Source of the DNA: a virus | Length of the DNA: 64,000 bases | IMG/VR virus record: IMGVR_UViG_3300026488_000018 | Coordinates: 1 to 64,000 of that record | Direction: 5' to 3' (one strand) | Part shown: positions 9,868 through 59,763 of the stretch, one piece after another | Numbering within the stretch: the first letter of the stretch is position 1 | Layout of the letters: every line of letters begins with the position of its first letter | Position numbers and translations under genes: made by a program | The notes under the pieces: generated by a model | The model's database searches: none | What the model saw: only the letters and a program-made list of their open reading frames with translations | What the model was told of the DNA's origin: nothing

Positions 9868-10137
9868 ATGAATTACAGGATTGTTCTGGAACCTAATATT
9901 AAGGTAGATGAATGGATTGAAGCCGGCGCATATGTAGAGTATCCGAGCGGTGAGATTAAGAAAGTTACGGGTTATTTAAAAGACGGTAGGATTATTGTCT
10001 ACATTGCAGACGAGGATATTCCGAAAGACGGCGCGTATATTTTTCAGGGTTACATATACAACGGTTCAGAGTATAATTACATCTCCAGCCCCGCGGTATT
10101 GTTTTTAAGGAGAGGTGGTTGTTATGATAAAGAGTGA
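9868..10137 (+). CDS. Small Ig-like/BppU-N-like virion protein, paralogue of 13231
   Basis: PSG...D(I/L)..(D/S)G.Y pattern shared with 13231; promoter consensus at 9829-9850. Confidence 0.5.
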   Translation: MNYRIVLEPNIKVDEWIEAGAYVEYPSGEIKKVTGYLKDGRIIVYIADEDIPKDGAYIFQGYIYNGSEYNYISSPAVLFLRRGGCYDKE

Positions 10138-32151: not shown

Positions 32152-32409
32152 ATGTATAGCGACACGTATTTATACCCAATAGGTGATGATGATTGGGTTT
32201 TTAGTAAAATTACGAACGCGTTGGATATTAGTATTGTTGATAGAGAGGAGTTTAGAGTGTTTGAAGTTGATGAGTTAATTTTAACGGAGTTGATATATTT
32301 GAATCCGTTAATACCAGTGTTTACAGATGGGCGCGGGTATTATGTCGTTGCTAAAAAGGGCAGTGAAGAAGAAAAAATGTTGGAGGTGTTGATTAATGGG
32401 GTTGTTTGA
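32152..32409 (+). CDS. Small hypothetical protein
   Basis: Between the ART-like gene and portal. Confidence 0.6.
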   Translation: MYSDTYLYPIGDDDWVFSKITNALDISIVDREEFRVFEVDELILTELIYLNPLIPVFTDGRGYYVVAKKGSEEEKMLEVLINGVV

Positions 32410-34471
32410 TTTCTTTTTGAATAGGCGTGAGATTAAGAAAAACGGTGATGAACCGGAGGTGGAAATAGAATTTGCGAAGGATGGAACATTTAATGCATTA
32501 ATGTATGCAGGAACAGATAATTTGTTTGATATAAAGGGTCCACTCGATTTTAGGGGGATAAATAAGAGTGCTGTTCAGGCGGGCGTAAGCGGGTTAGCGT
32601 TAGTCCCAATTTTACCGTTTAGTTACGAGTATGTAGAAAGCCTTTATTACAATAGCGATATACTGAGAACGGTTATAACGGTATTGTTGAATGAGACGTT
32701 CGGGAATGGGTTGAGTGTTAAACCGAAGTTTACGAAGAAGTGTTTGGTATGCGGTGCAACGTATGATGAGGATGTCGATGTGTGTGAGGCTTGTGGGTCA
32801 CATAGATTGGTGGGCCCCAATGAGAATGAACGGAAAATTTTAGAGAAGTTCATAGAAAAGGCGAATATTAATAATCAACCCTTGATTGATGTGCTGAGGG
32901 ATTTAGACCACAATTTGAATGTATTTGATAACGCGTATTTGATTGTTAGAAAGAAATACGAGTATAATGACAATGGTGATTTGATAGCAGAAAAACCACT
33001 TGAGATATACAGCGGTGACCCGAAGCGTATTTATTTGGTTATGAGTAGTGATGGTCGTCCGGGTCTTACGCGCGATGGTAAGAATATGGTTTTTGTCTGT
33101 CCTGAGCACAGAGATGAGCCAGTATTGGTTCCAGTAGAGAAGTTATTGGAAGACCCTGATTATATTCCAAGGTGTCCGAAGTGCGGGCGGAAGATGCATA
33201 AGGCTGTAGCAGTTTATGATGTAGGAGGAAGCAAGTATTTTTTTATTGATGGTGAAATTCTTCATTTGAAGAAGTTTACGCCCGGTATTGGATACGGGTA
33301 CCCGCCGATAATTACACTGTTGAAGAAATTGCTTATATTGATTAAGCAGGATTCGTTTATTTTAATGGCTTATCATATGCAGAGACCGCCGCGCGGGCTC
33401 CTTGTGTTGAGAGCAGATAGGAATGCTGTTGCTAAGGCATTTATGACTGCGCGCAGTGAGGCTTATAAGAACCCATGGAATATTGTGCCGTTGGTTATTT
33501 CAGGCCCGGAGAAGGTTGTTGGGAAACGTGTAGTTGAGTGGCTTGATTTGAGTTATAAACCAGATGAAGTGACATTTACCGCGTATCGCAATGAGGTAAG
33601 ACGCGTTGTTGCAAGTATGTGGCAAATTAGCCCAATTTTCCAGGGTGAGGTTAATACTGGTATTTCTAATGAGGGGTTACAAGTTACGATAACAAATAGA
33701 GCGATTATGCGTGAACAGGCTTTGATAAATAATGTGTTGAAGTGGCTGGTTAAGCAGTTGAAGGTTAATGATTGGGTTATAGAGTTAAATCCCAATGAGC
33801 CAATGGATATTTCACGCAAGCTCGACAGAATACGCCGCCGTATTGATATAGTAAAGGAGCTGGAAGAGCTCGGGTATGAAGTTGAGTTAATCCCAACGGG
33901 TGTTGACGGTATTGACTTTAAGTTCGATGGGAAGATTGAACCAAGTAAGAGGTTGAAGAGAGCGATTGAATTGTATGCAAAGAGGAAGGGGTATAGGATT
34001 AATGTTGATGATTTTATTGAAGTAATTGATGTTCTGCCGAAGGTAGGTTTAACGTTTGAGTCGTTTAAGAGGTTAATGTTGCTTGCTGAGTTGGTTGGCG
34101 GGGTTGAGAACATTATTAGAAATGTTGAGCAGGTGTTGAATATTCCACCGCTTGAGCAGATTTTGTATAGGATAAAGTATCCAGACGCTGCGAGTAATTA
34201 CGAGCAGGGTGGTGTACAGATGCTGCAAGATAACCAACAAGAAGTATTATCCCAGGAGCAGGGTATTGAAGAGAACAATGAAGGGGGTTCGTTAACGTTT
34301 GAGGATTGGCTAAATGAATTATTAAATGAAAGTGACGAAGTAGAAGGACAGCCAGCAGAGAGCGGTGTTAAAATGTTTAATTCAGAGGAGGGTGAGAAGT
34401 TTGAGGGGCAACCTGAGATGAATAGAAAGGAGATGCCCGGTATGGAGCATCTATACGAGAGAAGAGAGTGA
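32396..34471 (+). CDS. Portal protein with Zn-ribbon insertions
   Basis: LNVFDNAYL, EILH, GYGYPPI, PPRGLL motifs; CLVC..CEAC and CPEH..CPKC inserts; upstream of protease. Confidence 0.85.
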   Translation: MGLFDFFLNRREIKKNGDEPEVEIEFAKDGTFNALMYAGTDNLFDIKGPLDFRGINKSAVQAGVSGLALVPILPFSYEYVESLYYNSDILRTVITVLLNETFGNGLSVKPKFTKKCLVCGATYDEDVDVCEACGSHRLVGPNENERKILEKFIEKANINNQPLIDVLRDLDHNLNVFDNAYLIVRKKYEYNDNGDLIAEKPLEIYSGDPKRIYLVMSSDGRPGLTRDGKNMVFVCPEHRDEPVLVPVEKLLEDPDYIPRCPKCGRKMHKAVAVYDVGGSKYFFIDGEILHLKKFTPGIGYGYPPIITLLKKLLILIKQDSFILMAYHMQRPPRGLLVLRADRNAVAKAFMTARSEAYKNPWNIVPLVISGPEKVVGKRVVEWLDLSYKPDEVTFTAYRNEVRRVVASMWQISPIFQGEVNTGISNEGLQVTITNRAIMREQALINNVLKWLVKQLKVNDWVIELNPNEPMDISRKLDRIRRRIDIVKELEELGYEVELIPTGVDGIDFKFDGKIEPSKRLKRAIELYAKRKGYRINVDDFIEVIDVLPKVGLTFESFKRLMLLAELVGGVENIIRNVEQVLNIPPLEQILYRIKYPDAASNYEQGGVQMLQDNQQEVLSQEQGIEENNEGGSLTFEDWLNELLNESDEVEGQPAESGVKMFNSEEGEKFEGQPEMNRKEMPGMEHLYERRE

Positions 34472-34514: not shown

Positions 34515-37151
34515 ATGGAAGAACTGAAAAAAATTGATATTCTGGGGAGTAGTAACGATAGATTGATTGCGGGTTGGGCGAGCGTTGAGGTTGTAGATAG
34601 GCAGGGACAGATTGTTCCAATTGATGAACTAAATAAGGCGCTTTTGAGGTATAGTATTAGAGGCGCACCGCTTAATTATGGGCATAAAAACCACCAGGTT
34701 GGGCGTGTTATTAATTGGTATATAATGAAACACCCGAAGACGGGTAAGTGGGGTGTTTACATTATAGGCTACATATTTAGCGGTGAGAAGATATATGATG
34801 TTGTTTGGGAGGCGATTAAAGACGGAACTCTAACAGGTTTCAGCATTGCCGGTATTGCAAATAGGAAGGAGTATGATATTGTTGATGGGAGGAGTGTTGA
34901 GGTGTTGAGAGATATCACAATTACAGAGATAAGTGTGGTTGAGAAGCCAGCGAACCCCGAAGCTCTTATTGAGGAGATTAATAAGTTTGCTAAGAGCGGA
35001 GATGATTCGGTTATCCGTATAATGGGTGCAAGTTTTACTAAGGGTATTATTGATGATGCGGTTAATGTTGCCAAGGAGAACGGTGTTAACGAAGAAATTG
35101 TCGCTGATATAGTCGAAGAGGCACTGAGAAAGTTCATCTGCGGTATTGCCAAGCAGTATGACAGCAAGGTGATGGCAGTATTTGATAATGAGAAGGATGC
35201 GTTTGCGTATGCCATTGAGAAGGGAGGATTTGTGATTCCGAGTTATGATGGAAAGTTTTTAGTTGTAAGAGATAAAGCACATTTTGATGTTAAGGAAGAC
35301 GAGAAGATGTATATAGAAGAGTTGGATATGGGCGTAGAGAAGGTTAAAGTTGATGTTGATATGAAAGATGAAGAATTTGAGAAGAGTGAGGGCCCGGTTA
35401 CAGTTAGTTCAGAGGGAATGATGAACCCTACTTATGGAAGCAAGTGGTTAAAGAATAAGGACGAGAAGTCGAATGTGATAGGCGAAGTGATTATGAATCT
35501 TATCAGGATTAAGAAAGAGTTTAAGGATAATGAGTCGGTGTATTATTTGATTGATGATATGATTTTTAAGCTGCACGATTTGGTTGGTGGTGATGAGATG
35601 GTTAAAAGTATTGAAAGTGATGATGATTTGAGGAGAATTTTGGTAGGTCTCCTCGATGAGGCTAAAAAATTGAGGGGATTTGTGTATAAACATACAGAAA
35701 GTCTGGCATATAAAGGTATGGCTGATGATATTGTTAAGACGTTTGAACATCTGATTGAGGAACTTGATAGCGGGCAGATTGAGGTTGCTAAGGGTGAACT
35801 TACAAAGGATGAACTGTTGAGAATATTAAGAGGAATTCTTGATGAAGCAAAGAAGATTGCTGGTTTTATTAGAGACCACACTGAGAGCGGGGCATACAGG
35901 GGAATGGCTGAAGACGTTGTAAATGGTTTAAGGGCGCTCATTGGCGACGTTGAACGCAGTATTATTCAGGTTAGGAAGGATAGTGGTGTAGCTGATGATG
36001 ATATGAAGATTAAGGAAGAAGCAGAGAAGCTTAAGACAAAAATCGAGGAGATAAACGAGGTGTTTAGTAAGCAGGATGAGGGCAGGAATAGGATGATGAT
36101 GATGTACGGAAGTATTATGCAGAGCATTGTCGATGAATTGGAAGCTATAATCTTTTATGCTGACGTCGCGGCAATGTTTGATATGTTTGGGTATGACGAA
36201 ATTGCGGCGAATGTGAGGAGTGTTATTAGTGAGGAGCTAGAGCATGTTAGGGAGTTTACGGCGATGCTCGAGAAACTTGCTATTGGCGATAAACCAATTA
36301 AGGAAATTGAAACAAATGAGGAAGTTGCAGTTCCCACCCCCGACCAGGGTATTGTTGAAGTGAGCAAGAAGGAAAGAGGTGAGCACAAGAAGTGTATGGA
36401 GCGGTATTATAATTTTGAAGAAGGCCATTTCAAGGGTAGAGAGGGAACGGGTGAAAGGTTCGATAATTGTGTAAAAGCCCAGATGCATTGTAATGGGAAG
36501 AGTAGAGAAGAGGCTGAAAAGATATGTGGTATGATTGCTCGCAGGAAAGGTTATGCTGGCGGAAAGAAGGTTAAGAAGGGTAAGATTGATGAAATAAAAG
36601 CGAGACTTGAAGAAGTTAGAAAGGCGGCGAAGAAGAACTGTCGGAAGCGGTATTATGATGAAGATAGAGGACATTTCCGCGAGATGACTTGTCCAGATGA
36701 CCCAAATGAGAAAAGTAGGTTCTGTGGTTGTGTCAGGTATCAGATGAACTGCAATGGTAAGTCTTTGGAGGAAGCTAAGGAGATATGCGGATATATAAGG
36801 TTCCATGTTAAGAAGAGTGTTGAAACTGAACTTAATATGCTTCTTGTGAAGCTGAGGGTTGCAAAGGCAAGGAAGACTGGGCACCGTAAGGGTAAGACTG
36901 AAGCACAGCGTCGAAGGGAGAGAAAACAGCAAGGTCCTGGTCGTCCTAAAGACCCTTGTCGACAGCGTTTTGTTGATAAGAATGGTTTTTACAGAAAGAT
37001 GACTGACCCAAAGAACCCAAGTAAACCCGCGAGCGAGTTTTGGGGGTGTGTGAGATATGCAATGGAATGCAAGAAAATGTCATACGAAGAAGCGAAGAGT
37101 TGGTGTGGTAAGGCGAAGTACGATGCTGTTGAGGGCGGCGGTGAGGCGTGA
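34515..37151 (+). CDS. HK97-type prohead protease with long multi-domain C-terminal extension
   Basis: IAGWASVEVVDRQG, YGH, GFSIAG, EISVVEKPANPEA; followed by helical repeats, ferritin-like domain and Cys repeats. Confidence 0.88.
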   Translation: MEELKKIDILGSSNDRLIAGWASVEVVDRQGQIVPIDELNKALLRYSIRGAPLNYGHKNHQVGRVINWYIMKHPKTGKWGVYIIGYIFSGEKIYDVVWEAIKDGTLTGFSIAGIANRKEYDIVDGRSVEVLRDITITEISVVEKPANPEALIEEINKFAKSGDDSVIRIMGASFTKGIIDDAVNVAKENGVNEEIVADIVEEALRKFICGIAKQYDSKVMAVFDNEKDAFAYAIEKGGFVIPSYDGKFLVVRDKAHFDVKEDEKMYIEELDMGVEKVKVDVDMKDEEFEKSEGPVTVSSEGMMNPTYGSKWLKNKDEKSNVIGEVIMNLIRIKKEFKDNESVYYLIDDMIFKLHDLVGGDEMVKSIESDDDLRRILVGLLDEAKKLRGFVYKHTESLAYKGMADDIVKTFEHLIEELDSGQIEVAKGELTKDELLRILRGILDEAKKIAGFIRDHTESGAYRGMAEDVVNGLRALIGDVERSIIQVRKDSGVADDDMKIKEEAEKLKTKIEEINEVFSKQDEGRNRMMMMYGSIMQSIVDELEAIIFYADVAAMFDMFGYDEIAANVRSVISEELEHVREFTAMLEKLAIGDKPIKEIETNEEVAVPTPDQGIVEVSKKERGEHKKCMERYYNFEEGHFKGREGTGERFDNCVKAQMHCNGKSREEAEKICGMIARRKGYAGGKKVKKGKIDEIKARLEEVRKAAKKNCRKRYYDEDRGHFREMTCPDDPNEKSRFCGCVRYQMNCNGKSLEEAKEICGYIRFHVKKSVETELNMLLVKLRVAKARKTGHRKGKTEAQRRRERKQQGPGRPKDPCRQRFVDKNGFYRKMTDPKNPSKPASEFWGCVRYAMECKKMSYEEAKSWCGKAKYDAVEGGGEA
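35612..35980 (+). repeat. Two tandem ~60-aa helical repeats in the protease extension
   Basis: DDLRRILVGLLDEAKKLRGFVYKHTESLAYKGMADD vs DELLRILRGILDEAKKIAGFIRDHTESGAYRGMAED. Confidence 0.85.
36387..37125 (+). repeat. Three Cys-rich ~55-aa repeats in the protease extension
   Basis: C..R(Y/F)...G.(F/Y)...F..CV...M.C...S.EEA...CG repeated three times. Confidence 0.85.
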
Positions 37152-37189: not shown

Positions 37190-37480
37190 ATGAATGAAGG
37201 TATTAAGTCACTGGAAAAACGAGGTGCTAAGAGGTTTGTATTGTGGTTGGTATATTTGATTTTCGCCTTTATGTGGAATGTAAATAACGTTGATAATTTC
37301 TATAGCGGTGCGGGGTTGAGTTTGATTGCATTATCAGTGTTTACTGTAATCGATGAGAAAATAAAAGAGGGATATTTCTTTGACCCGAAGGATTTGAAGG
37401 GTAAAGGGTGGACACACGAGAAACTGGTATTCTGGTCCGCAGTTTTCGGCGCGGTATTGCTTATGATTGGTGGGGTGTGA
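37190..37480 (+). CDS. Membrane protein
   Basis: Three hydrophobic segments. Confidence 0.65.
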   Translation: MNEGIKSLEKRGAKRFVLWLVYLIFAFMWNVNNVDNFYSGAGLSLIALSVFTVIDEKIKEGYFFDPKDLKGKGWTHEKLVFWSAVFGAVLLMIGGV

Positions 37481-38006
37481 TGTTATGGGGATTGGAAATC
37501 CTACTCTTCGTGAATATTTGAGTGTATTGGAGCGGTATGGGAGTTATATGGGCAGAAAAATTGATGAGGGTAAGTTGTTTAAAGTGTATAGACGTGTGCA
37601 AGTTAATCCAAACGGAAGTTATAATCTTTACATCGATAATTCGACAAGCGATAGCGATGTTATAATTTCAATTCTTATTATTGAGGCTGATGGTAAAGCA
37701 AGTATAAACGTGTATAAGGACGTTAATATTAATAGTTATGGAAGCGAGGTTACACCGGAACCATTTGTTATAGGAGATGAATTGACGATTGCGACGAAGT
37801 TCTATGAAAATGTGGATTATAGTGGTGGGGTTCTTATTGATGGTGGACAGATTCAGTCTACACGGGGCAGACGCGGTATTGGCGGAGACCAGGAGTTTAA
37901 TGTGTTTTTTAAGATAAGAGCCGGGAAGTCTTTATTGATTGAAGTTGAGAATTTGGATTCTGTTAGTATTAGAGTTGATGTTAAATTAATTGCTCATGAG
38001 GGGTGA
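37467..38006 (+). CDS. Hypothetical beta-rich (likely structural) protein
   Basis: Context and composition. Confidence 0.6.
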   Translation: MVGCDVMGIGNPTLREYLSVLERYGSYMGRKIDEGKLFKVYRRVQVNPNGSYNLYIDNSTSDSDVIISILIIEADGKASINVYKDVNINSYGSEVTPEPFVIGDELTIATKFYENVDYSGGVLIDGGQIQSTRGRRGIGGDQEFNVFFKIRAGKSLLIEVENLDSVSIRVDVKLIAHEG

Positions 38007-38206
38007 TGGTATTGAACGTTAAAGAGATTGCTGAGCTGGTGGCTCTGGTCAGTGACGATATAGCGGCGCTGGTATTAATAATCGTTGGTTCGTATATTGC
38101 TATTAAGATGGATTATGATAACGGCAGCGCGTTGATTAGTTTGGGTGTTGCGTATTTGTTTGGTAGCCACGTTCCTAAAAAGCCTAAGTCCCGGGGTGAG
38201 AATTAA
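38003..38206 (+). CDS. Small two-TM membrane protein (holin-like architecture)
   Basis: Two hydrophobic helices, YLFG then a basic tail. Confidence 0.55.
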   Translation: MMVLNVKEIAELVALVSDDIAALVLIIVGSYIAIKMDYDNGSALISLGVAYLFGSHVPKKPKSRGEN

Positions 38207-39738
38207 TGGTTGGCAAGTTGAGATTGTATAATGATAATAGGACGAAACTACGCGAACTGTATTATGATGATACTAAAGGTATTGGAATGAGGGATGAGGT
38301 CGGTAATGAGTATGACATTGTTAGGGGGGCTTATGATTACATTATTTATGGCGAAGACATTGATGGCGATGGTATAGTAGATGTTGTCTATGCGAAGAAT
38401 GGACGCACGGGGAAGATTGAATTTGAGGGTGAAACAATATCGTATATATTAGATAAAATTTTCAATGTTAGTGAAAAGATAAACATATTATTGAGAGATG
38501 GCGTTTATGTAGCGGATAGCACTATTAATATATCGAATAAGAATACTGTGCATATTGAGGGTGTAGGTGATGTGAGAATTGAGTGGCGCGGGAGTATGGA
38601 TGATTTAAAGATTGTGAGGGTTGAAGATGTAGATAAATTTATTATTAGAAATATAGTGTTTGCAAATGTTCCACAATGGGGAGTATCGATTGGTCCGGCT
38701 TCAACGAGTAAGGGTAAGTATGCTATAGTTGATGGTGTTAGAGTGTATGGTTCTGGATACTATACATTGGGGACGGCATTGTCAATTTGGAATTATGAGA
38801 ATATTATAGTAAATAATTGTTATGTGTATGGAATGGATGATGTTATACAAATAAAGTCAACATCAAGAAAAATCAGTAATGTTTATATCATTGATAATGT
38901 TTTTGTTGATGGACGAGTAGAAGTTGGATTATCTGAAATTGATATTGATAATGTTTTTGTTGCAAATAATGTATTTGTTTCGGATAGTGAACCAACATAT
39001 TTACGTTTAGAACCGAAGTTAGGGAATGTTGTTGTCAGTTCGAATATATTTGTTGCCGTCAATGAAACACATTCATATGCTGTTAGGGTTGAACGTAACG
39101 GTGTTAATGGAGAAATTTCGAATATTAATATTAGTGGGAATGTAATTGATACATATTATTTGCCAGCGCTGTATATCAATGTTGAAGATGGGATGAGCGT
39201 TGGGACGGTTAAATTTTCTGATAATATTATTAGTGGAGTTGTTGAAACAGGTATGATACATGTAGAGAATTATGGTACGTTTGATACATTAGAAATTGTT
39301 AATAACATTTTTAATTATAGTGATAGTATTTACAACCCAAGTGTAAAGATTTATGGTGATAACCCCATAAGGTTTGTAAAAATTTGTGATAATAAATTCA
39401 AATGCACATCATCATATGTGAATATTTTTGATAGAATAATTAATATACCAGAATTTTTGTTTTTGTGTAGGAATATCGTTGAATCATTTGATGGTGAAAT
39501 ATTTAGGACTGAAAACAGTGGTACTACAACTTTCTCTGGTGATGGTACTACTACTCAGTTTGTAATAGCACATGGTTTAGTCTCGATGCCAAGTAAAGTT
39601 CAAGTCACTCCAATGAGCGCCGATGCGGTAGGTCCGTTTTATGTTACCGCAGATGAAACTAACATTTATGTGAACTATACTACTGCCCCACCAAGCGGAA
39701 CAAACAATATTAAACTAAGCTGGTACGCAGAGGTGTGA
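38206..39738 (+). CDS. Beta-helix spike/adhesin 3
   Basis: DIDGDG + [12 protein letters not shown] module, beta-helix core, C-terminal domain shared with 8252 (...WYAEV). Confidence 0.8.
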   Translation: MVGKLRLYNDNRTKLRELYYDDTKGIGMRDEVGNEYDIVRGAYDYIIYGEDIDGDGIVDVVYAKNGRTGKIEFEGETISYILDKIFNVSEKINILLRDGVYVADSTINISNKNTVHIEGVGDVRIEWRGSMDDLKIVRVEDVDKFIIRNIVFANVPQWGVSIGPASTSKGKYAIVDGVRVYGSGYYTLGTALSIWNYENIIVNNCYVYGMDDVIQIKSTSRKISNVYIIDNVFVDGRVEVGLSEIDIDNVFVANNVFVSDSEPTYLRLEPKLGNVVVSSNIFVAVNETHSYAVRVERNGVNGEISNINISGNVIDTYYLPALYINVEDGMSVGTVKFSDNIISGVVETGMIHVENYGTFDTLEIVNNIFNYSDSIYNPSVKIYGDNPIRFVKICDNKFKCTSSYVNIFDRIINIPEFLFLCRNIVESFDGEIFRTENSGTTTFSGDGTTTQFVIAHGLVSMPSKVQVTPMSADAVGPFYVTADETNIYVNYTTAPPSGTNNIKLSWYAEV

Positions 39739-39905
39739 ATAAGTGGCTATCTATACTAAATTGCGTATTACTTATGATGAGTTGAAGGTTGTATAATTTA
39801 ATTTGAAGTAATGCGGGTGGGTAGTAAAGTTAACCGGGGATGATGATTTTATTGAGGGTGCGTTTTTAACTCTTTTTTATGTATTTTTATCAGGGGTGAT
39901 AGTAA

Positions 39906-40190
39906 ATGAGTTATATTCCATTGAAGAGGGTTTTGGATGTTCTTAATTTGTTTAAGTTTGATAAGGAGAGTTATGTAAAAACAAGCGTTAGGCCGAAATT
40001 GGAGGTTCATGATGAGGAAATTGCAAGTGATGAGGTTTTGGCTGTTGCAAGCGGAGACGAGGTGGCGTTTAATAATTTGAAGGTTGATGGACGCATGATT
40101 GTAAAAGGCGCAGTGGATGTTGTCGGTGACATAGAGATAACCGGAACACTGGACATAATCGACGACGGTATTGTTAATGTCGGTTTGTGA
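39906..40190 (+). CDS. Small beta-solenoid (bactofilin-like) protein, paralogue of 2591
   Basis: LKVDGRMIVKGAVDVVGDIEITGTL repeats; promoter consensus 39863-39885. Confidence 0.55.
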   Translation: MSYIPLKRVLDVLNLFKFDKESYVKTSVRPKLEVHDEEIASDEVLAVASGDEVAFNNLKVDGRMIVKGAVDVVGDIEITGTLDIIDDGIVNVGL

Positions 40191-41616
40191 GGTGATTGCT
40201 GTGAGTGAGTTGAGATTTATCGGCGAAAGTGGAACGATTCAGAAAAAGTTTGTGCTAGATGAGGTTAACAATCAGCTTAAGATGGTTGATATCCCGAGCG
40301 GAAAGGAGGTTTATTTGAACCAACCAGTGAATGTGTATGATTACATAATTTTTGGCGAGGATACAAACGGCGATGGCATCGTGGATATTATCTATGCTAA
40401 GAATGGCAAAACAGGAGAGATTGAATTCGAGAGTGGTAACGCGAGAGAAGTTGTGCAGTATGCGTTGGATAATGGGAGAAATGTGTATGTTGCTAATGGA
40501 AAATATTATATTGATTCAACAATAAAGATGTTATCTGATAGAGTTTTAGTGTTCGAGAGTAGAGATGCAAAATTTTATACGGATAGTGCAATTACTATGG
40601 TTGAAATAAGTAGTGTTGGGTATGACCCAGATATTGGCATATATTCAACAAAGGGTATTTTTGGTGGAACTCTAGATGGTGGAGGAGTTGCAAATCTTGT
40701 AAAGATTGTTGACGTAGAGGAGGCGATAATAAGAGGAACCGCAATGATTAATTTTGTTGATGGTATTGAAATAACAGCTCAAGATTATTGGAGTGAATGG
40801 ACAAAGATAGAGGATGTGATATTTAGGAACTATTCTGGTTGGGCAATAAAATATACGCCTACGTCAGGGAGTGGAACAGACAGTAGGGGTGATTCATATC
40901 TAGCAAGAATTAGAGCAGACCCTCTGGGAGGTGGAGGAGGGTTAATAAAGGTGGAGACAGGTGTAAACGCAGGAAGCATGGTGGCAGTAGATTTGGTCTT
41001 TTTTAATAGAGGACAGTATATGATATATAGCGATGGGAGATTAGATGAAAGTGTTTTTATAAAAGTGCGGATGGAAGACCATTCTCCTAGCGGTAAAGAG
41101 TTGCTGTATTTTGATAATAATCATATTGGATATGTGGAAATGATTTCAGTTGGTATTGGTCCGATGTTGCTTGGTAATTTTACTGATTATTTTGTATGTA
41201 ACCAAGGTGGTGTTGAGATAATTAATAGAGATACTCAATATATCATTGGCGTTGGTAGATACAAATATATTGTAGGAGCACAAGGAGATACGAGAATAAC
41301 ATTTGCTGGAAATGCTAACATGACCTCAGGTAACTGGGTGTTTGATGTTAGGGATGATATAGTGAGTAATAAGTCGTTATTCCACATTACTCACGGCGGA
41401 GCTGTATATCTTGGTGCACAAGATTATTCAGATACAGTAGTAATGAATAGGTTGAGGTTTGCGAGCACAACACGACCACATTTTAATATCGTAGCAAGAA
41501 ATACTCCCCCGAGTAATCCCGCGGTTGGAGATATATACTTAGATGATGGAACAAATACAGCAGATGGTAAGCCTCATTTTAGGTATTGGGATGGAACACA
41601 ATGGGTGGACTTGTGA
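40171..41616 (+). CDS. Beta-helix spike/adhesin 4 (likely GTG start 40201)
   Basis: DTNGDG + YAKNGKTGEIEF module; C-terminal PSNPAVGDIYLD...YWDGTQW fibre motif. Confidence 0.8.
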   Translation: MLMSVCEVIAVSELRFIGESGTIQKKFVLDEVNNQLKMVDIPSGKEVYLNQPVNVYDYIIFGEDTNGDGIVDIIYAKNGKTGEIEFESGNAREVVQYALDNGRNVYVANGKYYIDSTIKMLSDRVLVFESRDAKFYTDSAITMVEISSVGYDPDIGIYSTKGIFGGTLDGGGVANLVKIVDVEEAIIRGTAMINFVDGIEITAQDYWSEWTKIEDVIFRNYSGWAIKYTPTSGSGTDSRGDSYLARIRADPLGGGGGLIKVETGVNAGSMVAVDLVFFNRGQYMIYSDGRLDESVFIKVRMEDHSPSGKELLYFDNNHIGYVEMISVGIGPMLLGNFTDYFVCNQGGVEIINRDTQYIIGVGRYKYIVGAQGDTRITFAGNANMTSGNWVFDVRDDIVSNKSLFHITHGGAVYLGAQDYSDTVVMNRLRFASTTRPHFNIVARNTPPSNPAVGDIYLDDGTNTADGKPHFRYWDGTQWVDL

Positions 41617-41771
41617 GGTAATGGTATATGGTATTGGGTTGGATGAAGAGTACTAATGATGACAATCTAATCTTTCCTATTTATATTGGTTTTACAGTCT
41701 AGGCTATTTTTTCTTCATATTTAAATGAATGTGGTGAAATTTAAATGGTAGGTTTCACGGGGTGATTGTAT

Positions 41772-42305
41772 ATGCCTGAGGAAGAGAAGGTTGAGGTTAT
41801 GCCCACCGAGGAGGAGCAGACTCTGCCTGTTGAGGATAATAAGGTTGAAACTAAGACTGATAATGAGATTGAGGAGATTCTTGAGAAGATTCAGGATATA
41901 GTTGCTGAGCTTGCTGACCTTGTTGCACAGGCAACTCAGCTTCAGGCCAGTGATGTTAACATTAGCGAGGAAATCGAGGAGAGCCTGAAGGGTATTGTCA
42001 GAGCGGAGCTTAATGCGTTTAAGGATGAGATTGTTAAGGCTGTTAAGGAAGAGCTCATTTCGCTCGGTATTCCTGAGAGTTATAGTGAGCTTAAGAGGAA
42101 GGATGAGGAGAAGGCTCCGGAGGGAACTGATAAGGTCGAGGTTAGTGAGAAGGAGCTTGGTAAGCTTGAGCCGGAAGTTCTTAAGGCTGCGCCGAAGAAT
42201 GTTACCGGCGGGGAGGATGAGCTTTCTGTTAGAATGATGATTGTTGAGAAGATTATGAAGGGTGAGATTAAGAACCCGTTTGAGGCTTACAAGTATATAA
42301 GGTGA
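41772..42305 (+). CDS. Capsid scaffold protein
   Basis: Acidic coiled-coil immediately upstream of MCP; codon bias like MCP. Confidence 0.7.
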   Translation: MPEEEKVEVMPTEEEQTLPVEDNKVETKTDNEIEEILEKIQDIVAELADLVAQATQLQASDVNISEEIEESLKGIVRAELNAFKDEIVKAVKEELISLGIPESYSELKRKDEEKAPEGTDKVEVSEKELGKLEPEVLKAAPKNVTGGEDELSVRMMIVEKIMKGEIKNPFEAYKYIR

Positions 42306-42310
42306 TTTAA

Positions 42311-43486
42311 ATGGTGTGGAGTGTTATTTCTGAAAAGGAGATAGCTGCGTTTTATGCTGGTGGAGATAGTATATTTAACGGGGCGTTCGATATTGCTAAA
42401 GCCGATGGTACCGTTAATTCTGAGCTTATTCCTAATTATCGTAACATAGTTTATGGTCCGCGCATTTGGAGAGCTCTTAACGTTGAGAGTAATGCGTTTG
42501 GTATTCTTCCTAAGACGACTTGGCCGAGCTCTGGTTGGCGTGTGAAGACTGATTTTGCTTACCAGAGCAGTGAGATTGCTATTGGTGAGACTGACAGCTT
42601 TGGTACTCCGAAGTATCCGCCGATACAGGTTGTTAGGGCGCAGCCAAAGATAGCGCTTGTTACGTTCGAGATTAGCGATGTCATGGAGGCGCTTGCTGAG
42701 GTTTCGCAGGATGACGTTGTTGGTACCGCGGAGCAGCTTCGTGTCGATATGGGTACTGAGTTTGTTAAGATGGTTAATAGGGAGCTTCTTAGGAAGGTTA
42801 TTGGTAGCGCCACTGATGGAAGTGATTCTGAGGGTTCTGAGCCTGCAACGAGGTTTACTTCGCTTGATAGGGCTGTCGCGAGCCATGCGGAGGCACAGGC
42901 TTTTGGTTCCCCGGAGAGTGCGACTGTTTACGGTATTGACAGAGCGAGCGCTCCTTGGATGGATTCAGTTGTTAAGTTCGACACGAATGGTCTCGAACTT
43001 ACGGATGAGCTGATAAGGCAGACTCTCGCTGAGGTTAAGAAGAATGGTGCTAACACTAATGTTATACTCACCGGTTACGATACTTATGCGAAGCTCCTCG
43101 GTATTTACATGAACTTTGTTAGGTATCTACCGGCTATGACTGAGACGCAGGTTCAGTTCGGTGTTAACGGTATTCAGACTGCGAAGGGTATTGACGCGGG
43201 TGTGAAAGTTGCTGCCCTTTATGGAATTCCAGTGATACAGTCTGTTGATGTTCCAAGTGATGGTAACGGTTATCTGCAGAGGATGTATATGCTTGACCTT
43301 ACTGACCCCGAGGGATATGGAATACCGCGCGGAAGTTTCTCAATACTTAGGCCGCCGAGCTATCTTGAGAGCAACAACTTCGTCCTGATGCAGAAGGTTG
43401 TAAGGCGTGGAGCGTACTATATGGCGGGTGAGCTGACTATAAGGCTGCCGCGCATGAACGCGAAGATAAGGTCAATCCTCGAGTGA
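42311..43486 (+). CDS. Major capsid protein (HK97 fold)
   Basis: YG..W..LN.E.NAFGILPK..W..SGWRV N-terminal motif, TSLDR, ILTGYDT, LYGIPVI; strong codon bias. Confidence 0.85.
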   Translation: MVWSVISEKEIAAFYAGGDSIFNGAFDIAKADGTVNSELIPNYRNIVYGPRIWRALNVESNAFGILPKTTWPSSGWRVKTDFAYQSSEIAIGETDSFGTPKYPPIQVVRAQPKIALVTFEISDVMEALAEVSQDDVVGTAEQLRVDMGTEFVKMVNRELLRKVIGSATDGSDSEGSEPATRFTSLDRAVASHAEAQAFGSPESATVYGIDRASAPWMDSVVKFDTNGLELTDELIRQTLAEVKKNGANTNVILTGYDTYAKLLGIYMNFVRYLPAMTETQVQFGVNGIQTAKGIDAGVKVAALYGIPVIQSVDVPSDGNGYLQRMYMLDLTDPEGYGIPRGSFSILRPPSYLESNNFVLMQKVVRRGAYYMAGELTIRLPRMNAKIRSILE

Positions 43487-46249: not shown

Positions 46250-47332
46250 GTGGATGATGAGGTTATCACAAGAGAACTTTTCTTGTGGATGCGCGCTCAT
46301 CACGGTTTTCCAATTTTTCCCCGCGAGGTAGGACGAAAGATAAACAATCAAGTACCACGATGGGTTGCAGATGAGCTTGATTTCTGGGAGTTTTGGGAGA
46401 GGTGGAATGTTGATAAATATGCGAATATTTTTAGCCAGAGACAGAAGACTATAAGGCTATATGATACAATTTTGTTCGATATAGATTATCACAATGGCGG
46501 GGGGTTCCAAGAAATAGAGAAAGCTTATGAGTATTATGTGAAAGTTCACGACATGCTGAGAGATGCCGGTATTGTTTCTACGAGGGTGTATTTTACAGGA
46601 AGGGGGTTTCATGTTTATGTAGATTTTCCACCAACGAGGTTGGAGTTTTATCCAAAGGTGATAGATGAGTGGGTATTGTCAACTATCGGTGAAGAAATTT
46701 TAAAGTTTGTTGACGTTAGAGTGTTAGGTGATAGAAATAGAATGGCAAGACTTCCATTTAGTGTGAATAGTTCAACAGGAATGATGATGCTAAGGATTGA
46801 TGATTTATGGGATTTGGATACTATTATAGACAAGAATTTGGAGTTGTATGTTCCGCGGGTAAAGGATTTTGATAATGATTGGTTAGGCGAAGAATTGAAG
46901 GATATTGATGAGAAGATAGGCGAAAAGTTTAAAAATGTAAGAAGAGATAATGTTGTTAGATTGGAGGATTTGAAATTAGATAAATTGGATGATTTGCCCC
47001 CGTGCATTAGAGAGGGTATTGAACGTTTAGCTGCAACAGGAGAATTAGAGTCGACGTGGCGAATGCATATTGCAACATTTTTGATGCGTGTTTGGGGCGT
47101 CGAGAGAACGGTTGATGTTTTTAGACTGGCAGATGATTTTAATGAGGCAAAAACAAGGTATTTCATCAATTATTTTATGGAACACGATTATTATCCACTG
47201 AGTTGCAAAAAAGCCAGGGCACTGGGTATTTGTAATACGAAGAAGTGTGTATTTGAGGATTTAACTGGAGGATGGTTAGGGGCGTTACTTATTGGAGGGG
47301 ATAATGATGAAAAAGATAACAACGAACGGTGA
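46250..47332 (+). CDS. Archaeo-eukaryotic primase, PriS fused to PriL-like Fe-S domain
   Basis: FDID, FTGRGFHVY, D...RMARLP; C-terminal LPPCI...YPLSC...GIC...C. Confidence 0.85.
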   Translation: MDDEVITRELFLWMRAHHGFPIFPREVGRKINNQVPRWVADELDFWEFWERWNVDKYANIFSQRQKTIRLYDTILFDIDYHNGGGFQEIEKAYEYYVKVHDMLRDAGIVSTRVYFTGRGFHVYVDFPPTRLEFYPKVIDEWVLSTIGEEILKFVDVRVLGDRNRMARLPFSVNSSTGMMMLRIDDLWDLDTIIDKNLELYVPRVKDFDNDWLGEELKDIDEKIGEKFKNVRRDNVVRLEDLKLDKLDDLPPCIREGIERLAATGELESTWRMHIATFLMRVWGVERTVDVFRLADDFNEAKTRYFINYFMEHDYYPLSCKKARALGICNTKKCVFEDLTGGWLGALLIGGDNDEKDNNER

Positions 47333-49505
47333 ACTTACGTATTTTACTGTTAATAGGGATGATGATGTTTTTGTCCGAGTGATGGGTATTGAAGATGGTG
47401 AAGTTTTTATAGTTGACGCGCCAATTAGAGATTATTTGTTTATAGATAAGGATATATCGCAAAGTGTTAAGGATAAAATCAAGAGTTTAGGAGGTATTTT
47501 TGTTAATGTTGATATGCGTACAGGTGATGAATATAAGAAGCCAGTTGTTAAAGTGGAACTTAGCGAACCAAGTGCAAACGAGTATGTGTCAAGATTAGCG
47601 AAGTTGCACAATGTTGGAGTTTATGAGGATGGTATAAGTTTTACGCGCAGGCTGTTTATTGATGAGATTGCGCAAGTTAAGTATAGGGATTTTGTGTTTT
47701 TTGATATTGAAACTGACAGTAGTTTTGGATTTCCTAAGGAATATGGCAAGTACCCGTTTTTGAGTATTTCTGTATGGGCAAGTGATGGTTCGTGGAGTGA
47801 TTGGTTTTACATAAAGGATTATGATTCGGAACAGGATATGCTGAGGGATTTTATAGCACTGTTACAGAAGAAGAAAATAAGTTTTGTTGTTGGGTGGAAT
47901 GTTGATTTCGATTATTTCCATACGAAGGAGAGATTGAAGTATTTTGGCATGTATGACGAAATGCGGTATTGGCGATTGGTATCAAGATTGGATTTAATGG
48001 AGCAATATAAGAAGGCTCGCCCCGGGTTGGGGAGTTACAGTTTGCATAATGTTAGTATTGAGGAGGGATTTTCGAGGATTAAGGAAATGACTAAGCTACC
48101 ACACGAGATGACGAGGCAGGAGTTGTATGAATATAACATGTATGATAGTGAGATTTTACAGTTGATTAATGATAGGTATCAACTTGTTGACGTTGCAAAA
48201 GAGGTTGCTCATTATGTTAATTTACCAATGAGTGCAGCTCAATCTACTGTTGCGCGATTGGAAACTAAGATGTTTAGACGGTTACACGAACTGGGTTATG
48301 TTGGCGTAAGAAGAAATGTTAATGTTGGTGATGTTGATTATCAGGGTGCAATTGTTTTAGACCCAGTTCCCGGTGTTCACAAAAATGTTATTGTTATAGA
48401 TTTTAGGTCACTGTATCCCACAACGATTATTAACAAGAATATTGATATTCGTGGGTTCAACGGCGAGGTATTTCCATATGTAGTGAAGGAAGCGCTGGAT
48501 AATAGGTTGAAACATAAACTCAAGTGGAAGGAATATGAAAAGAAGGCAGAAGAGTGTAAAGAGGGGGGTGACGACGAGTGTGCGAAGGAATATGAACGAT
48601 TAGCTTTTATTGAGAAGTTGAAGAGTGACGCTCTTAAGATTGTTGTGAATGGTTATTATGGTGCGAATGCAAACAAGTATTATTATTTCTTCGACCCTGA
48701 TGTTGCGGCTGCAATTACAGCAGGCGGCCGAGAAATGCTGATGAAAACCAAAAAATATTTGGAGGATGTGTGGAAATTCCAAATAATTTATGGCGACACT
48801 GATTCATTGTTTGTGAAAGTTGATGACGCATTTAAGGGTAAAGATGTCGATAAACATGAGATTGAGGAGTTCGCGGAGATTATTGCAGCAGATGTAAATG
48901 AATATGTTAAGCCATGGGTAGTTGACGTTGACAAGTTAATCCGCCGTATTATCTTTTTGAGCGATAAAAAGGGAAGGGGTATTAAGAAGAGGTATGCGTA
49001 TGTTGATTTTGACGGGAAGATTAAGATTAAAGGATTGGAAGTTGTTAAAGGTGATTGGCCAAAGTTGACGAAGTGGCTTCAGATGGAAATATTGAAGAAG
49101 ATTTTGTTGGAAGATGCGAGTAGAAAGGATATAATGTTATTTGTCAAGGATGTGAAGCGCAGGATGTATAATGGCGAGTTCGACGAATGGTTGATTATAA
49201 CGAAGAATCTATCAAGAGAAGTTCATGAGTATGACCAGGGTAGGAAGTTACCTCCGCATGTTACTGCGTATATTAAGGCTGAACAACGTGGAACACCATT
49301 TGCAACGCGCCAGGTATCGTTTGTTTGGACTGTAGGGAAAGAGCGCGGTGTTCCCGAGCCGGAGCCGGTTGTGAGAGTGAGTGATGTAAAGAAGTATAGG
49401 CTTGATTATGATTATTATTGGGAGCATGTTATTTATCCGCCAGCAAAGAGAGTTATAGATAGCGTTTATCCCGTAAATATGTCGATTTTGAATTGGATTA
49501 AGTAG
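47304..49505 (+). CDS. polB: Family B DNA polymerase
   Basis: Exo DIETD, GWNVDFD, YNMYD; pol DFRSLYP, KIVVNGYYG, YGDTDS, KKRY, KGLE. Confidence 0.95.
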   Translation: MMKKITTNGELTYFTVNRDDDVFVRVMGIEDGEVFIVDAPIRDYLFIDKDISQSVKDKIKSLGGIFVNVDMRTGDEYKKPVVKVELSEPSANEYVSRLAKLHNVGVYEDGISFTRRLFIDEIAQVKYRDFVFFDIETDSSFGFPKEYGKYPFLSISVWASDGSWSDWFYIKDYDSEQDMLRDFIALLQKKKISFVVGWNVDFDYFHTKERLKYFGMYDEMRYWRLVSRLDLMEQYKKARPGLGSYSLHNVSIEEGFSRIKEMTKLPHEMTRQELYEYNMYDSEILQLINDRYQLVDVAKEVAHYVNLPMSAAQSTVARLETKMFRRLHELGYVGVRRNVNVGDVDYQGAIVLDPVPGVHKNVIVIDFRSLYPTTIINKNIDIRGFNGEVFPYVVKEALDNRLKHKLKWKEYEKKAEECKEGGDDECAKEYERLAFIEKLKSDALKIVVNGYYGANANKYYYFFDPDVAAAITAGGREMLMKTKKYLEDVWKFQIIYGDTDSLFVKVDDAFKGKDVDKHEIEEFAEIIAADVNEYVKPWVVDVDKLIRRIIFLSDKKGRGIKKRYAYVDFDGKIKIKGLEVVKGDWPKLTKWLQMEILKKILLEDASRKDIMLFVKDVKRRMYNGEFDEWLIITKNLSREVHEYDQGRKLPPHVTAYIKAEQRGTPFATRQVSFVWTVGKERGVPEPEPVVRVSDVKKYRLDYDYYWEHVIYPPAKRVIDSVYPVNMSILNWIK

Positions 49506-56565: not shown

Positions 56566-59500
56566 ATGGTCGAGTATATTAAGAAGAGGGATGGAAGAAT
56601 TGTTAAGTTTGACAGAAGTAGAATTGAAAATGCTGTCAGGAAGGCTTTTCTTGATGCCAATAATGGGTATGATGAAAACGACGTGAAGAAAGTTACTCGC
56701 GCCGTGCTGTATCGCATTACTCAGTTGTATGGCGAGGATGATATTCCAAGCGTGGAAGAGATTAACGATATTGTTGAAATAACACTGATGAAGCACGGGT
56801 ATTATGATGTTGCGAAGAAGTTCATAATGTATCGCAAGAAGAAGGAAGATGAGCGCAAGGAGAAGATGCGTATTTGGGGGCTTAAAGAGTGGGTTGATGA
56901 CCCCGTTCTAAAGAAGTTTAGTATTAACGCGTTGAGGGTTCTCGCTTCGCGGTATCCAATTAAGGACGAGAATGGTAATATTGTTGAGCTCCCGAGTGAG
57001 ATTTTCAGACGTGTTGCTGTTGGTGTTGCTATTGCCGAGATGTTGTATGATAAGAAGGTGTTTGATAAGAACGGCGGTCACAGAGCGCGGTATCCAGAGG
57101 TTTTTGAAGGTGAAGAGCTCGAAAAGCTTGGGGTGGAAATTTTTGGGTATAAACTGAATCGTTATATGTGGGAGAGGCTTTATGAGAGGTTTAAGGAACT
57201 TGCCGATGAAGGCAAAATGAAGGTTTCTTGGGAGCAGTTTGTTGAGCTGGTTAAGGATGGTAAGATTACTAAGAATGCGGAGAAGTATGCTAAAGAGTGG
57301 TATGAGTTAATGGTTAATCAGTACATGATGCCTAACACGCCAACGATTAGCAATGCAGGAAGACCGTTTTATATGTTATCAGCATGTTTTGTGAATTATT
57401 TAGAAGATAGTTTAGAAGGGATTATGAAAACAGCCCATGATATAGCAATTATAAGTAAGTATGGTGGTGGTAATGGAGTTGATTTAACTGTGTTGAGGCC
57501 AGAAGGGGATAAGGTTTCGAAGACAAGTGGCGTGAGTTCGGGACCCGTTTCGTTTCTGCATATGTTTGATGCTATTAGTAATGTTATTAAAGAAGGTGGG
57601 ATAAGGCGTTCAGCTGGCATGGCTGTTATGCAGTATTGGCATCCAGACATTGATAAGTTTATTTATGCAAAGAAAGATAACGATGGTAAGAGTGTCCTCA
57701 CCACGTTTAATATCAGTGTTGGTCTTTGGGAGGAGTTCTGGGAGAAACTTGAGAAGGGTGAAGAGTTTGAATTGATTAATCCGCGCGATGGTTCTGTCTG
57801 GGGCAAGAAGGATGCGAGGAAGTTTTTTGAGGAACTTGCTTATATGGCTTGGGCGAAGGCTGACCCCGGTGTGCTGTATTTTGATAGACACAATCAGTAT
57901 AATATTATGCGTGAGAAGTGGGGCGATATTACCGCGACTAATCCGTGTCTAACTGGAGATGCTTTGGTTGTTACCCCCGCAGGTCTAAAGAGAATGGACG
58001 AACTGAGAGAGGGAGATATGGTTTACGTTGGTAACGGGAAGTTTGAGAAGATTGTGAAGTTTTATGATTTAGGTGAACAAGACGTGTACCGTATTGTTAC
58101 AAGGATGGGGTTTGAGATTAAAGCGACGGGTGACCACAGGTTTATGACGAGTCGTGGTGTTAAGAGAGTTGATGAGATGAAGGTCGACGACACAGTATTT
58201 GTTTGGATGAATTGGAAGAGGCAGGAGTATGGTGTTGGTGAATTTGTTCCAGATGTAATTGTTAAGATTGAATATGTTGGTAAGGAGCGTGTTTACGATT
58301 TCGAAACTGATGGCAATAAGTGGTTCTTTGCGAACGGTATTTATAATTTGGATTGCGGTGAAGAAGCTTTGTATCCTTACGAGGCATGCAATTTACTGAG
58401 TATTAATCTGTGGAAGTTTGTAAAGGAGGATGAAAATGGTAATAAGTATTTTGATTGGGATGAATATGCTAAGGTTATTAAGAGCGCCGTGAGAATGCTT
58501 GATGATGTAATTGAGGTGAATAAGTATCCTCTTCCGGAGATTAACGAGATGGTAAAGAAGACGCGGCGCGTTGGTCTTGGCTTTATGGGTATTGCTGAGG
58601 CACTGTTTGAGCTGGGTATTCCATATAATAGCAAGGAAGCATATGATTTAATGAAGAAGTGGGCGGAGACTAACCAGTATTTTGCCATGGTAGAGAGCGT
58701 TGAGCTTGCAAAGGAGAGAGGTGAGTTTCCGGCGTTTGAAGAGAGCGGTTATGTTAGGGGAGAACTCCCCGTCGCTGGGTATTATGAAGTTCCAAGAGAG
58801 GAGTGGAATTATGATTGGGATGGTTTAGTTGAAGAAATAAAGAAGCATGGTATCAGGAATGCGTTTCTTACTACTGCGCCCCCAACGGGTTCGGTTTCAA
58901 TGATTGCTGATACTTCAAGCGGTATTGAACCACAGTTTGCGCTTGCGTATAAGAAGAGTGTTACAATTGGTGAATTCTACTACATCGACCCAGTATTTGA
59001 AAGAGTGTTGAAGGAGAGAGGTATTTACTCGGATGATTTAATTAAGAAGATTGTCGATAACGGTGGTTCAGTGCAGGGTATTGAAGAAGTTCCAGAAGAT
59101 ATTAGAAGAGTGTTTGTTACGGCAATGGATATTCATTGGATGGACCATATTCTGGCGCAGGCGGTATTCCAGTTGTGGACTGATGTGAGTATTTCAAAGA
59201 CGATTAATATGCCCGAAAATGCAACGGTAGAGGATGTTAAGGCTGCGTATTTGATGGGTCATTATCTCGGGTTGAAGGGTGTCACAGTGTATCGCATGAA
59301 CAGTTTAACTTATCAGGTATTGTCAACGGAGAAGAACAAGAGGAAAGAGCCAGAGATGAGCGATTACGCGAAGGAGACATTCGAAAGAATTTTGAATGAA
59401 CACGAATGGTTAAAGTCGTATATCAACCTCGAAGAAATTAGTGGTTATAAGTTAAAGCAGAAGAACGGTGGATTGTTTTTGAATGTTGGTTTTGAGTTTC

Positions 59501-59763
59501 CAAGAAAAGAACCGACCCCCCAGCAGGGTATTGATTTGAGTAAAGTGGGCGAGTTGATTGAGAAGTATGCTAAGAGTGGAGAGAGTATTGTTGATGATGA
59601 TGTATTTAAGGCAATTGATGAAGAACTTCGTAAAAAAGGCCTACTTGGCACCGCGTATTGTCCAATATGCTGGGAGAAGGATAGGGTATTAAGCCCAGTT
59701 GTGTTCGAGGCGGGGTGTAAGACGTGTAAGAGATGTGGTTGGAGCGCTTGTACAGTTGCTTAA
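56566..59763 (+). CDS. nrdJ: Class II (B12-dependent) ribonucleotide reductase with ATP cone and intein
   Basis: IKKRDG ATP cone, PNTPT, LSACF, GGGNG, TNP|C..|CGEE, ACNL.SINL, APPTGS, SSGIEP, ISKTIN; C-terminal Zn site. Confidence 0.92.
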   Translation: MVEYIKKRDGRIVKFDRSRIENAVRKAFLDANNGYDENDVKKVTRAVLYRITQLYGEDDIPSVEEINDIVEITLMKHGYYDVAKKFIMYRKKKEDERKEKMRIWGLKEWVDDPVLKKFSINALRVLASRYPIKDENGNIVELPSEIFRRVAVGVAIAEMLYDKKVFDKNGGHRARYPEVFEGEELEKLGVEIFGYKLNRYMWERLYERFKELADEGKMKVSWEQFVELVKDGKITKNAEKYAKEWYELMVNQYMMPNTPTISNAGRPFYMLSACFVNYLEDSLEGIMKTAHDIAIISKYGGGNGVDLTVLRPEGDKVSKTSGVSSGPVSFLHMFDAISNVIKEGGIRRSAGMAVMQYWHPDIDKFIYAKKDNDGKSVLTTFNISVGLWEEFWEKLEKGEEFELINPRDGSVWGKKDARKFFEELAYMAWAKADPGVLYFDRHNQYNIMREKWGDITATNPCLTGDALVVTPAGLKRMDELREGDMVYVGNGKFEKIVKFYDLGEQDVYRIVTRMGFEIKATGDHRFMTSRGVKRVDEMKVDDTVFVWMNWKRQEYGVGEFVPDVIVKIEYVGKERVYDFETDGNKWFFANGIYNLDCGEEALYPYEACNLLSINLWKFVKEDENGNKYFDWDEYAKVIKSAVRMLDDVIEVNKYPLPEINEMVKKTRRVGLGFMGIAEALFELGIPYNSKEAYDLMKKWAETNQYFAMVESVELAKERGEFPAFEESGYVRGELPVAGYYEVPREEWNYDWDGLVEEIKKHGIRNAFLTTAPPTGSVSMIADTSSGIEPQFALAYKKSVTIGEFYYIDPVFERVLKERGIYSDDLIKKIVDNGGSVQGIEEVPEDIRRVFVTAMDIHWMDHILAQAVFQLWTDVSISKTINMPENATVEDVKAAYLMGHYLGLKGVTVYRMNSLTYQVLSTEKNKRKEPEMSDYAKETFERILNEHEWLKSYINLEEISGYKLKQKNGGLFLNVGFEFPRKEPTPQQGIDLSKVGELIEKYAKSGESIVDDDVFKAIDEELRKKGLLGTAYCPICWEKDRVLSPVVFEAGCKTCKRCGWSACTVA
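57946..58353 (+). mobile_element. Mini-intein (136 aa) at the NPC/GE active site of RNR
   Basis: Starts CLTGDALV, block B ATGDH, block F VYDFE, ends ANGIYNLD before +1 Cys; no homing endonuclease. Confidence 0.9.

Follow-up and report, generated by a model that had tools for sequence, protein, structure and literature searches.

Does a tailed virus carry, inside its own head, the kind of half-ferritin that encapsulins enclose as cargo? The question is raised by a 64,000-nucleotide stretch of viral DNA, positions 1-64,000 of the IMG/VR record IMGVR_UViG_3300026488_000018 (the window; the full record is linear, 89.7 kb long and has an estimated completeness of 76%), in which a single open reading frame (ORF) encodes an 878-residue prohead protease polyprotein. 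An initial annotation, made from the sequence alone, placed a ferritin-like domain of the encapsulin-cargo type within this protein at 36093-36280. That segment lies in frame in ORF 34515-37151 (residues 527-588), and both of the strings quoted in the annotation are present. Residues ~505-605 are very probably homologous to the encapsulated-ferritin superfamily, judging by profile comparison with the reference family (EncFtn/Flp, Family 1 encapsulin cargo: TIGR04535, EncB_fam; PDB entries 5n5e, 7s8t, 7s5c, and 5da5). The best explanation of the locus as a whole, favored here with moderate confidence, is a divergent EncFtn half-ferritin that would be co-packaged via the prohead protease and act as a di-iron ferroxidase in the head.

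A half-ferritin module in the prohead protease polyprotein

The protein, the module, and its candidate ligands are placed as follows.

34515..37151, + strand: prohead protease polyprotein, 878 residues (ORF; alignment of three homologues)
36027..36329, + strand: half-ferritin (EncFtn-like) module as modelled with AlphaFold2, residues 505-605; long helix A, turn, helix B, short tail
36102..36296, + strand: profile-matching core of the module, residues 530-594 (hhalign E 6.1e-10)
36135-36137, 36156-36158, 36234-36236, and 36243-36245, + strand: ligand candidates E541, Y548, E574, and H577, respectively (pattern, alignment)

The four candidates form the pattern E541-x2-A544-x3-Y548 ... E574-x2-H577. 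A profile of 44 stand-alone half-ferritins, which includes no protease-linked sequence, gives one match in the 878-residue protein (residues 530-594, hhalign probability 96.6%, E 6.1e-10) and one place in the whole 89.7-kb record (36057-36296, E 2.4e-17). A word-based search of 5.8 billion clusters yields only two full-length homologues of the polyprotein, P0002 (801 residues) and P0003 (864 residues), both from metagenome assemblies. The best single-stretch match of a profile of the three modules (A2) to PDB sequences is the excised EncFtn domain of P. furiosus (5n5e; 31.6 bits, E 1.6e-6). PfV encapsulin (2e0z, 3.9e-5), M. xanthus EncC (7s8t, 1.8e-3), and EncB (0.018) are also found, as are bacterioferritin and rubrerythrin, while sulerythrin reaches 1e-6 by summing two half-matches. 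EncB_fam (best E 7.9e-12; window copy 6.1e-5) and TIGR04535 (best 3.8e-7; window copy 2.5e-4) are the top two NCBIfam families for 3/3 modules. P0002 passes the Pfam Rubrerythrin cut-off (29.0 vs 22.8 bits) over model positions 3-76 of 137 only, and phmmer searches of PDB sequences give weak matches to helices A-B of bacterioferritin, with Glu, Tyr, and Glu-x-x-His in register. With EncB_fam and TIGR04535 as the nearest named families and 5n5e as the best single-stretch PDB match, the assignment to the encapsulin-cargo type is borne out. A full four-helix rubrerythrin is ruled out, as no second half is found by profile in the 878 residues.

An AlphaFold2 model built from a 47-row alignment (mean predicted local distance difference test score, pLDDT, 87.4) places helices at model residues 2-53 and 57-87, and a single-sequence model shows the same hairpin. 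The Foldseek list for the former consists almost only of di-iron ferritin-like proteins, among them sulerythrin (root-mean-square deviation 0.9 over 60 residues), bacterioferritin, EncC, EncB, and R. rubrum EncFtn, with 5n5e at rank 6 (probability 0.99, 30% identity). The predicted fold alone decides nothing; sequence and fold together do.

In the account of EncFtn given in PMC11202242, iron is coordinated by Glu32, Glu62, and His65 with Tyr39 nearby (R. rubrum numbering), and the ferroxidase centre is situated at a dimer interface within a decamer whose assembly is iron-dependent. By position, Glu32/Tyr39/Glu62/His65 correspond to E541/Y548/E574/H577 of the module, and all four positions align with P. 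furiosus EncFtn columns in the A2-PDB alignment. These four residues are invariant in 3/3 homologues, as are D540, L542, E543, A544, E580, and F581. The module is only 26-32% identical among the three proteins, compared with 49-54% for the proteins as a whole; ligands that stay fixed while their background drifts speak for selection on metal binding. The initial annotation had staked its reading on a ferritin-like helical hairpin and on conserved Glu/His ligands: the hairpin is predicted with high confidence, the Glu/Tyr/Glu/His set is kept in both homologues, and EncFtn proteins are recovered by profile and by Foldseek alike.

Several observations weigh against this reading. When this Glu-rich protein is shuffled 20000 times, 1901 of the shuffles (9.5%) contain the bare pattern E-x6-Y-x18-34-E-x2-H; translated in six frames, the window shows it at three further places, with five overlapping matches. 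Residues 536-636 match Pfam Ferritin (19.1 bits, E 1.3e-3, cut-off 24.5) and Rubrerythrin PF02915 (18.2 bits, E 3.3e-3, cut-off 22.8), in both cases below the cut-off, and Pfam EncFtn-like PF22277 (cut-off 27 bits) is not among the families listed at E <= 1 for any of the three full-length proteins (window, P0002, P0003). The window copy scores 21.0 bits against a TIGR04535 cut-off of 125, and 23.0 against 90 for EncB_fam; because every curated cut-off is missed, the module is treated as a divergent relative and not as a curated EncFtn member. Foldseek E-values all exceed 0.2, a consequence of the short hairpin used as query, and Foldseek with the single-sequence model gives no meaningful match. 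In a structure-only search of 48,161 chains with VIA-align, generic hairpins (ESCRT-III, PspA) score Z 9-10, and sulerythrin (Z 8.8) and EncB (Z 8.5) are found among them. The ligands are retained in 119/120 single-module relatives (described below), a count that is partly circular because the relatives were picked by a profile in which those residues are fixed.

The frequency of the pattern in shuffled sequences and the generic hairpins of the structure-only search are what would be expected if a Glu-rich helical hairpin merely happened to carry the pattern. Such a coincidence is extremely improbable beside a profile match at one place only, in the protein and in the record, top named families that all belong to the EncFtn/rubrerythrin group, and ligands that are invariant across divergent homologues. 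The bare pattern alone is not significant, and the similarity seen by profile exceeds chance.

The divergence of the window copy also bears on whether the domain is still functional. Its score against the stand-alone profile is the lowest of the three modules (59.5 bits, compared with 78.4 and 88.8), it has Arg two residues past the His where 114/120 relatives have Gly, and it has lost a Ser-Pro turn that P0002 and P0003 keep. Together with the low identity of the module relative to the whole proteins, these features would fit a decaying relic, a once functional domain (perhaps still so in P0002 and P0003) whose window copy is drifting. Against decay stand the four ligands and the acidic residues beside them, none of which is lost, an uninterrupted reading frame, and a hairpin predicted with high confidence; this explanation is considered very unlikely.

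Architecture of the polyprotein and its head-gene setting

The protease is followed in the polyprotein by a small alpha/beta unit, then by two helical repeats, next by the half-ferritin module, and finally by three Cys-rich repeats.

34551..35000, + strand: prohead serine protease domain, S78/XkdF type, residues 13-162 (PHROG, Pfam, tblastn)
35619..35972, + strand: two tandem 59-residue helical repeats, residues 369-427 and 428-486 (coordinates hand-counted from translation/alignment)
36372..37124 (approximate, hand-counted), + strand: three basic Cys-rich repeats of ~55 residues each, ~residues 620-870 (conserved Cys in alignment)

Residues 13-162 match PHROG 9427 'head maturation protease' (E 7.3e-18), pass the cut-off of Pfam Peptidase_S78_2 PF14550 (25.3 bits, cut-off 24), and fall just below that of Peptidase_S78 PF04586 (20.9 bits, cut-off 21). 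Annotated capsid maturation proteases in 136 Streptomyces/Rhodococcus phage records are matched by tblastn, over residues 1-214 only. On these profile and alignment matches, the N-terminus of the polyprotein is a caudoviral prohead serine protease of the S78/XkdF type. H57, H60, and S110 are invariant in 3/3 homologues, and the catalytic role presumably lies among these conserved His and Ser residues.

Downstream of the protease, the homologues are variable. Indel-rich linkers bound the half-ferritin module in the three-homologue alignment, and in P0003 the order of modules differs, with the half-ferritin preceding the helical repeat and the alpha/beta unit present twice. The helical repeat occurs as one copy each in P0002, P0003, P0166, and P0167. 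It has no Pfam match and no match to the half-ferritin profile, and the upstream repeats are accordingly rejected as further half-ferritins. Each Cys-rich basic repeat has four conserved Cys and matches no Pfam family. Shorter homologues combine the protease with one helical repeat (P0166, P0167), a single Cys-rich unit (P0168), or a different tail (P0169). As the tails differ in this way, the protease tail can be described as a variable string of passenger modules of which the half-ferritin is one.

To the counter-evidence given above must be added the distribution of the module. The protease plus half-ferritin architecture is found in three sequences only, none of P0166-P0169 contains the half-ferritin, and no related loci are found in viral, genome, or metagenome contig sets by whole protein or alignments. 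Because shorter protease homologues lack it, the module would be dispensable for head assembly, and by this comparison it is an accessory and not a core assembly part.

The polyprotein gene is located among head genes.

32396..34471, + strand: portal protein gene, directly upstream of the polyprotein (PHROG 18178 'portal protein', E 8.4e-39)
41766..42305, + strand: candidate scaffolding protein, an acidic ORF just upstream of the capsid gene (position and composition only)
42311..43486, + strand: major head (capsid) protein (PHROG 24667 'major head protein', E 1.9e-27)

Pfam Phage_capsid PF05065 has no match anywhere in the virus record. The acidic ORF has no PHROG match and is a candidate for a separate scaffolding protein. 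Between the protease and the scaffold/capsid genes, 37190-41616 holds non-head genes, including two small membrane-like ORFs, an immunoglobulin-like ORF, and a 510-residue ORF with no family at Pfam cut-offs and no PHROG family.

The scaffold-like ORF is relevant to a further explanation, in which the half-ferritin would be an assembly module, forming metal-bridged dimers or rings and organising the core of protease and internal proteins under the capsid vertices, with structural and not catalytic Glu and His residues. The module shares a head-assembly protein with other helical repeats, and EncFtn decamers, as described in PMC11202242, are iron-dependent and sit on the five-fold axes of encapsulins. 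A resemblance between the hairpins of EncFtn-type cargo and the phi29 scaffold is also drawn in PMC13669383. Closely related proteases nevertheless lack the half-ferritin, the capsid gene is adjoined by a scaffold-like ORF of its own, and the Tyr, which metal bridging alone would not need, is also invariant. An assembly role is judged unlikely.

In the window as a whole, the + strand holds nearly all long ORFs, and GC skew ranges from +0.31 to +0.51 in each 2-kb bin of positions 1-64000. Some hints concerning the host are provided by other features. At 46250-49505, a PriL-type (eukaryotic/archaeal) primase large subunit (E 1.7e-11) adjoins a family B DNA polymerase, and because both are encoded an archaeal host is hinted at. 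The IVYWREL fraction of the proteome is 0.438, which by formula would presumably correspond to ~75 C. The gene content and composition suggest that the host of this tailed virus is archaeal and thermophilic. A ribonucleotide reductase large subunit at 56566-59763 has an ATP cone and an intein splicing domain within the barrel.

Relatives of the module and a proposed route into the head

A search of 1.84 billion representatives with the A2 profile gives 392 matches at E <= 1e-3, and the counts of relatives given in this study rest on the best 150 of these together with P0002. Among them, 120 are single-module proteins, of which 44 have at most 135 residues, 41 have 136-300, and 35 are longer. 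EncB_fam and TIGR04535 are both matched at E <= 1e-3 by 42/44 of the short relatives, Pfam Rubrerythrin by 27/44, and Pfam EncFtn-like PF22277 by 16/44. In an unrooted FastTree tree of the 120 modules (76 columns), the three protease-linked modules do not group together but fall within a 48-leaf group (support 0.85). One of 10 relative clusters bears the name 'rubrerythrin'.

The direct parallel between virus and encapsulin drawn in the initial annotation stands in part. The module is fused to a prohead protease, and the genes of the virus include a portal and a major head protein of HK97 type; a specific link to the fusion form of the Thermococcales is not supported. The best 150 metagenomic relatives all score at least 39.6 bits against the profile that gives the P. 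furiosus domain 31.6 bits, and a specific Thermococcales origin is unsupported.

Half-ferritins are also found in other viral settings. A 97-residue stand-alone half-ferritin ORF lies at 9871-10164 of a viral contig (L013), between head protease/capsid and tail sheath/tube genes; this is the only one of 14 +/-10-kb stretches around P0009 loci to hold the module, and neither of two P0015 loci does so. The module is present in 4/5 of the large IMG/VR phage records searched (E 1e-21 to 1e-24). In a 151-kb phage record, the half-ferritin match (L018, G004:C1:126071-126349) contains two in-frame TAG codons, and TAG may be read as a residue in this phage. The ESM Atlas adds, as a lead only, neighbouring small clusters with a rubrerythrin domain and the label Viruses/Uroviricota (score 0.83). 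A tblastn search of 50,697 GenBank phage records with four module queries (the P0003 segment, the window segment, P0029, and P0028) gives no match.

Several long relatives join the module to InPase (P0015), LPD18 (P0023), DUF6582 plus a nucleotidyltransferase (P0036), or a methyltransferase (P0092), partners typical of packaged phage polyvalent proteins. In the account of such packaged multidomain proteins in PMC5512222, those bearing InPase are read as packaged and possibly injected. These partners are consistent with an explanation in which the module is not capsid cargo at all: severed from the polyprotein in the cytoplasm, or entering along with the DNA, it would work on iron or peroxide in the host cell, as an auxiliary stress gene product or injected effector. 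Delivery with the DNA, however, needs prior packaging, and fusion to a prohead protease would be an odd route for a cytoplasmic enzyme. This alternative is distinctly unlikely.

Co-packaging of a divergent EncFtn half-ferritin through the protease thus remains the preferred reading. Prohead proteases are built into procapsids, where they cut themselves and other core proteins. Because they are incorporated in this way, the half-ferritin would enter the head with the protease to which it is fused: the polyprotein would co-assemble inside the shell, and the protease would cut the linkers, probably freeing the modules as internal head proteins. Two modules could then pair to form a di-iron site, perhaps in rings as in EncFtn, and this site would oxidise Fe(II) with O2 or peroxide, keeping Fenton chemistry off the packaged DNA of a hot-living virus. 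Packaging of the half-ferritin into the capsid is probable; real ferroxidase chemistry is a tentative proposal, with the chances lying slightly on the other side.

Comparison with known systems

HK97-type virus capsids are regarded as the ancestors of encapsulins, a link that has so far been made on the shell protein alone. If the proposal made here is true, a capsid that belongs to a real virus may admit cargo of the type enclosed by encapsulin shells. The cargo idea becomes directly testable, as the best-known encapsulin cargo has here a relative, recognisable in sequence, that is fused to the one enzyme built into procapsids. It also suggests a route of DNA protection for a virus of hot, iron-rich, reducing habitats, and hints that half-ferritin modules, so far undescribed, are more widely present in uncultured tailed viruses. 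It is tempting to speculate further that tailed-virus heads and encapsulins have cargo in common besides the shell fold, that viral procapsids had the half-ferritin as a passenger from early on (on protease, scaffold, or portal), and that encapsulin iron compartments kept shell and passenger but dropped the genome, or else that the passenger moved back into viruses, the filled head being an iron-oxidising, DNA-protecting compartment at high temperature. This scenario is rather unlikely as it stands.

The available literature approaches this setting from several sides. The text of the survey of Andreas and Giessen (2021) describes phage genomes as removed as false positives, and the only partner it reports for fused Flp is the shell protein, in archaeal cases (PMC8346489). 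In a 2026 paper on viruses and encapsulins, cargo and scaffold are argued to be parallel from structural resemblance only, and it is speculated that procapsids could do biochemistry if viruses encoded cargo-related proteins (PMC13669383). The words ferritin, rubrerythrin, and diiron have 0 occurrences in the main text of the polyvalent-protein paper (PMC5512222). A full-text literature search returned no description of an encapsulated-ferritin-like domain in a virus head protein, although the supplements of PMC8346489 and PMC13669383 may list phage ferritin-like genes. What is new is the setting of the half-ferritin inside the prohead protease polyprotein of a tailed virus; the encapsulated-ferritin type of domain is already known.

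The main helices of EncFtn are described as two in number and as forming a hairpin (He et al. 2016; PMC11202242). The module is predicted to share this arrangement of two long antiparallel helices, half of the ferritin four-helix bundle, and it has the same ferroxidase-centre positions (Glu, Tyr, and Glu-x-x-His), with the motif past the His also present in P0002 and P0003. Both are tied to an HK97-fold shell system. However, EncFtn is a free protein of ~100 residues with a C-terminal targeting peptide, whereas the module, internal to an 878-residue viral protease polyprotein, has no such C-terminal peptide of its own, and its shell would be a DNA-filled virus capsid in place of a metabolic compartment.

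In archaeal Flp-fusion encapsulins, as described in PMC8346489, the half-ferritin enters the HK97-fold shell by covalent fusion, with no targeting peptide. The module resembles the PfV example (2e0z, E 3.9e-5) in being a half-ferritin covalently fused to an assembly protein, but in PfV the fusion is at the N-terminus of the shell protein, while here the module is mid-chain on a maturation protease, and the scores of the metagenomic relatives indicate no special kinship between the two. With rubrerythrin, sulerythrin, and bacterioferritin, the module shares the helix A-B half and the same ligand spacing; in contrast to these proteins, it is a single hairpin and has no rubredoxin domain.

In T4, internal proteins with a capsid targeting sequence ride into the head as passengers and are released by the head protease. 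These proteins, the polyvalent proteins, and the reading proposed here share the notion of passenger domains that travel in the head. The difference is that, in the polyprotein of this virus, the putative passenger is fused to the protease itself.

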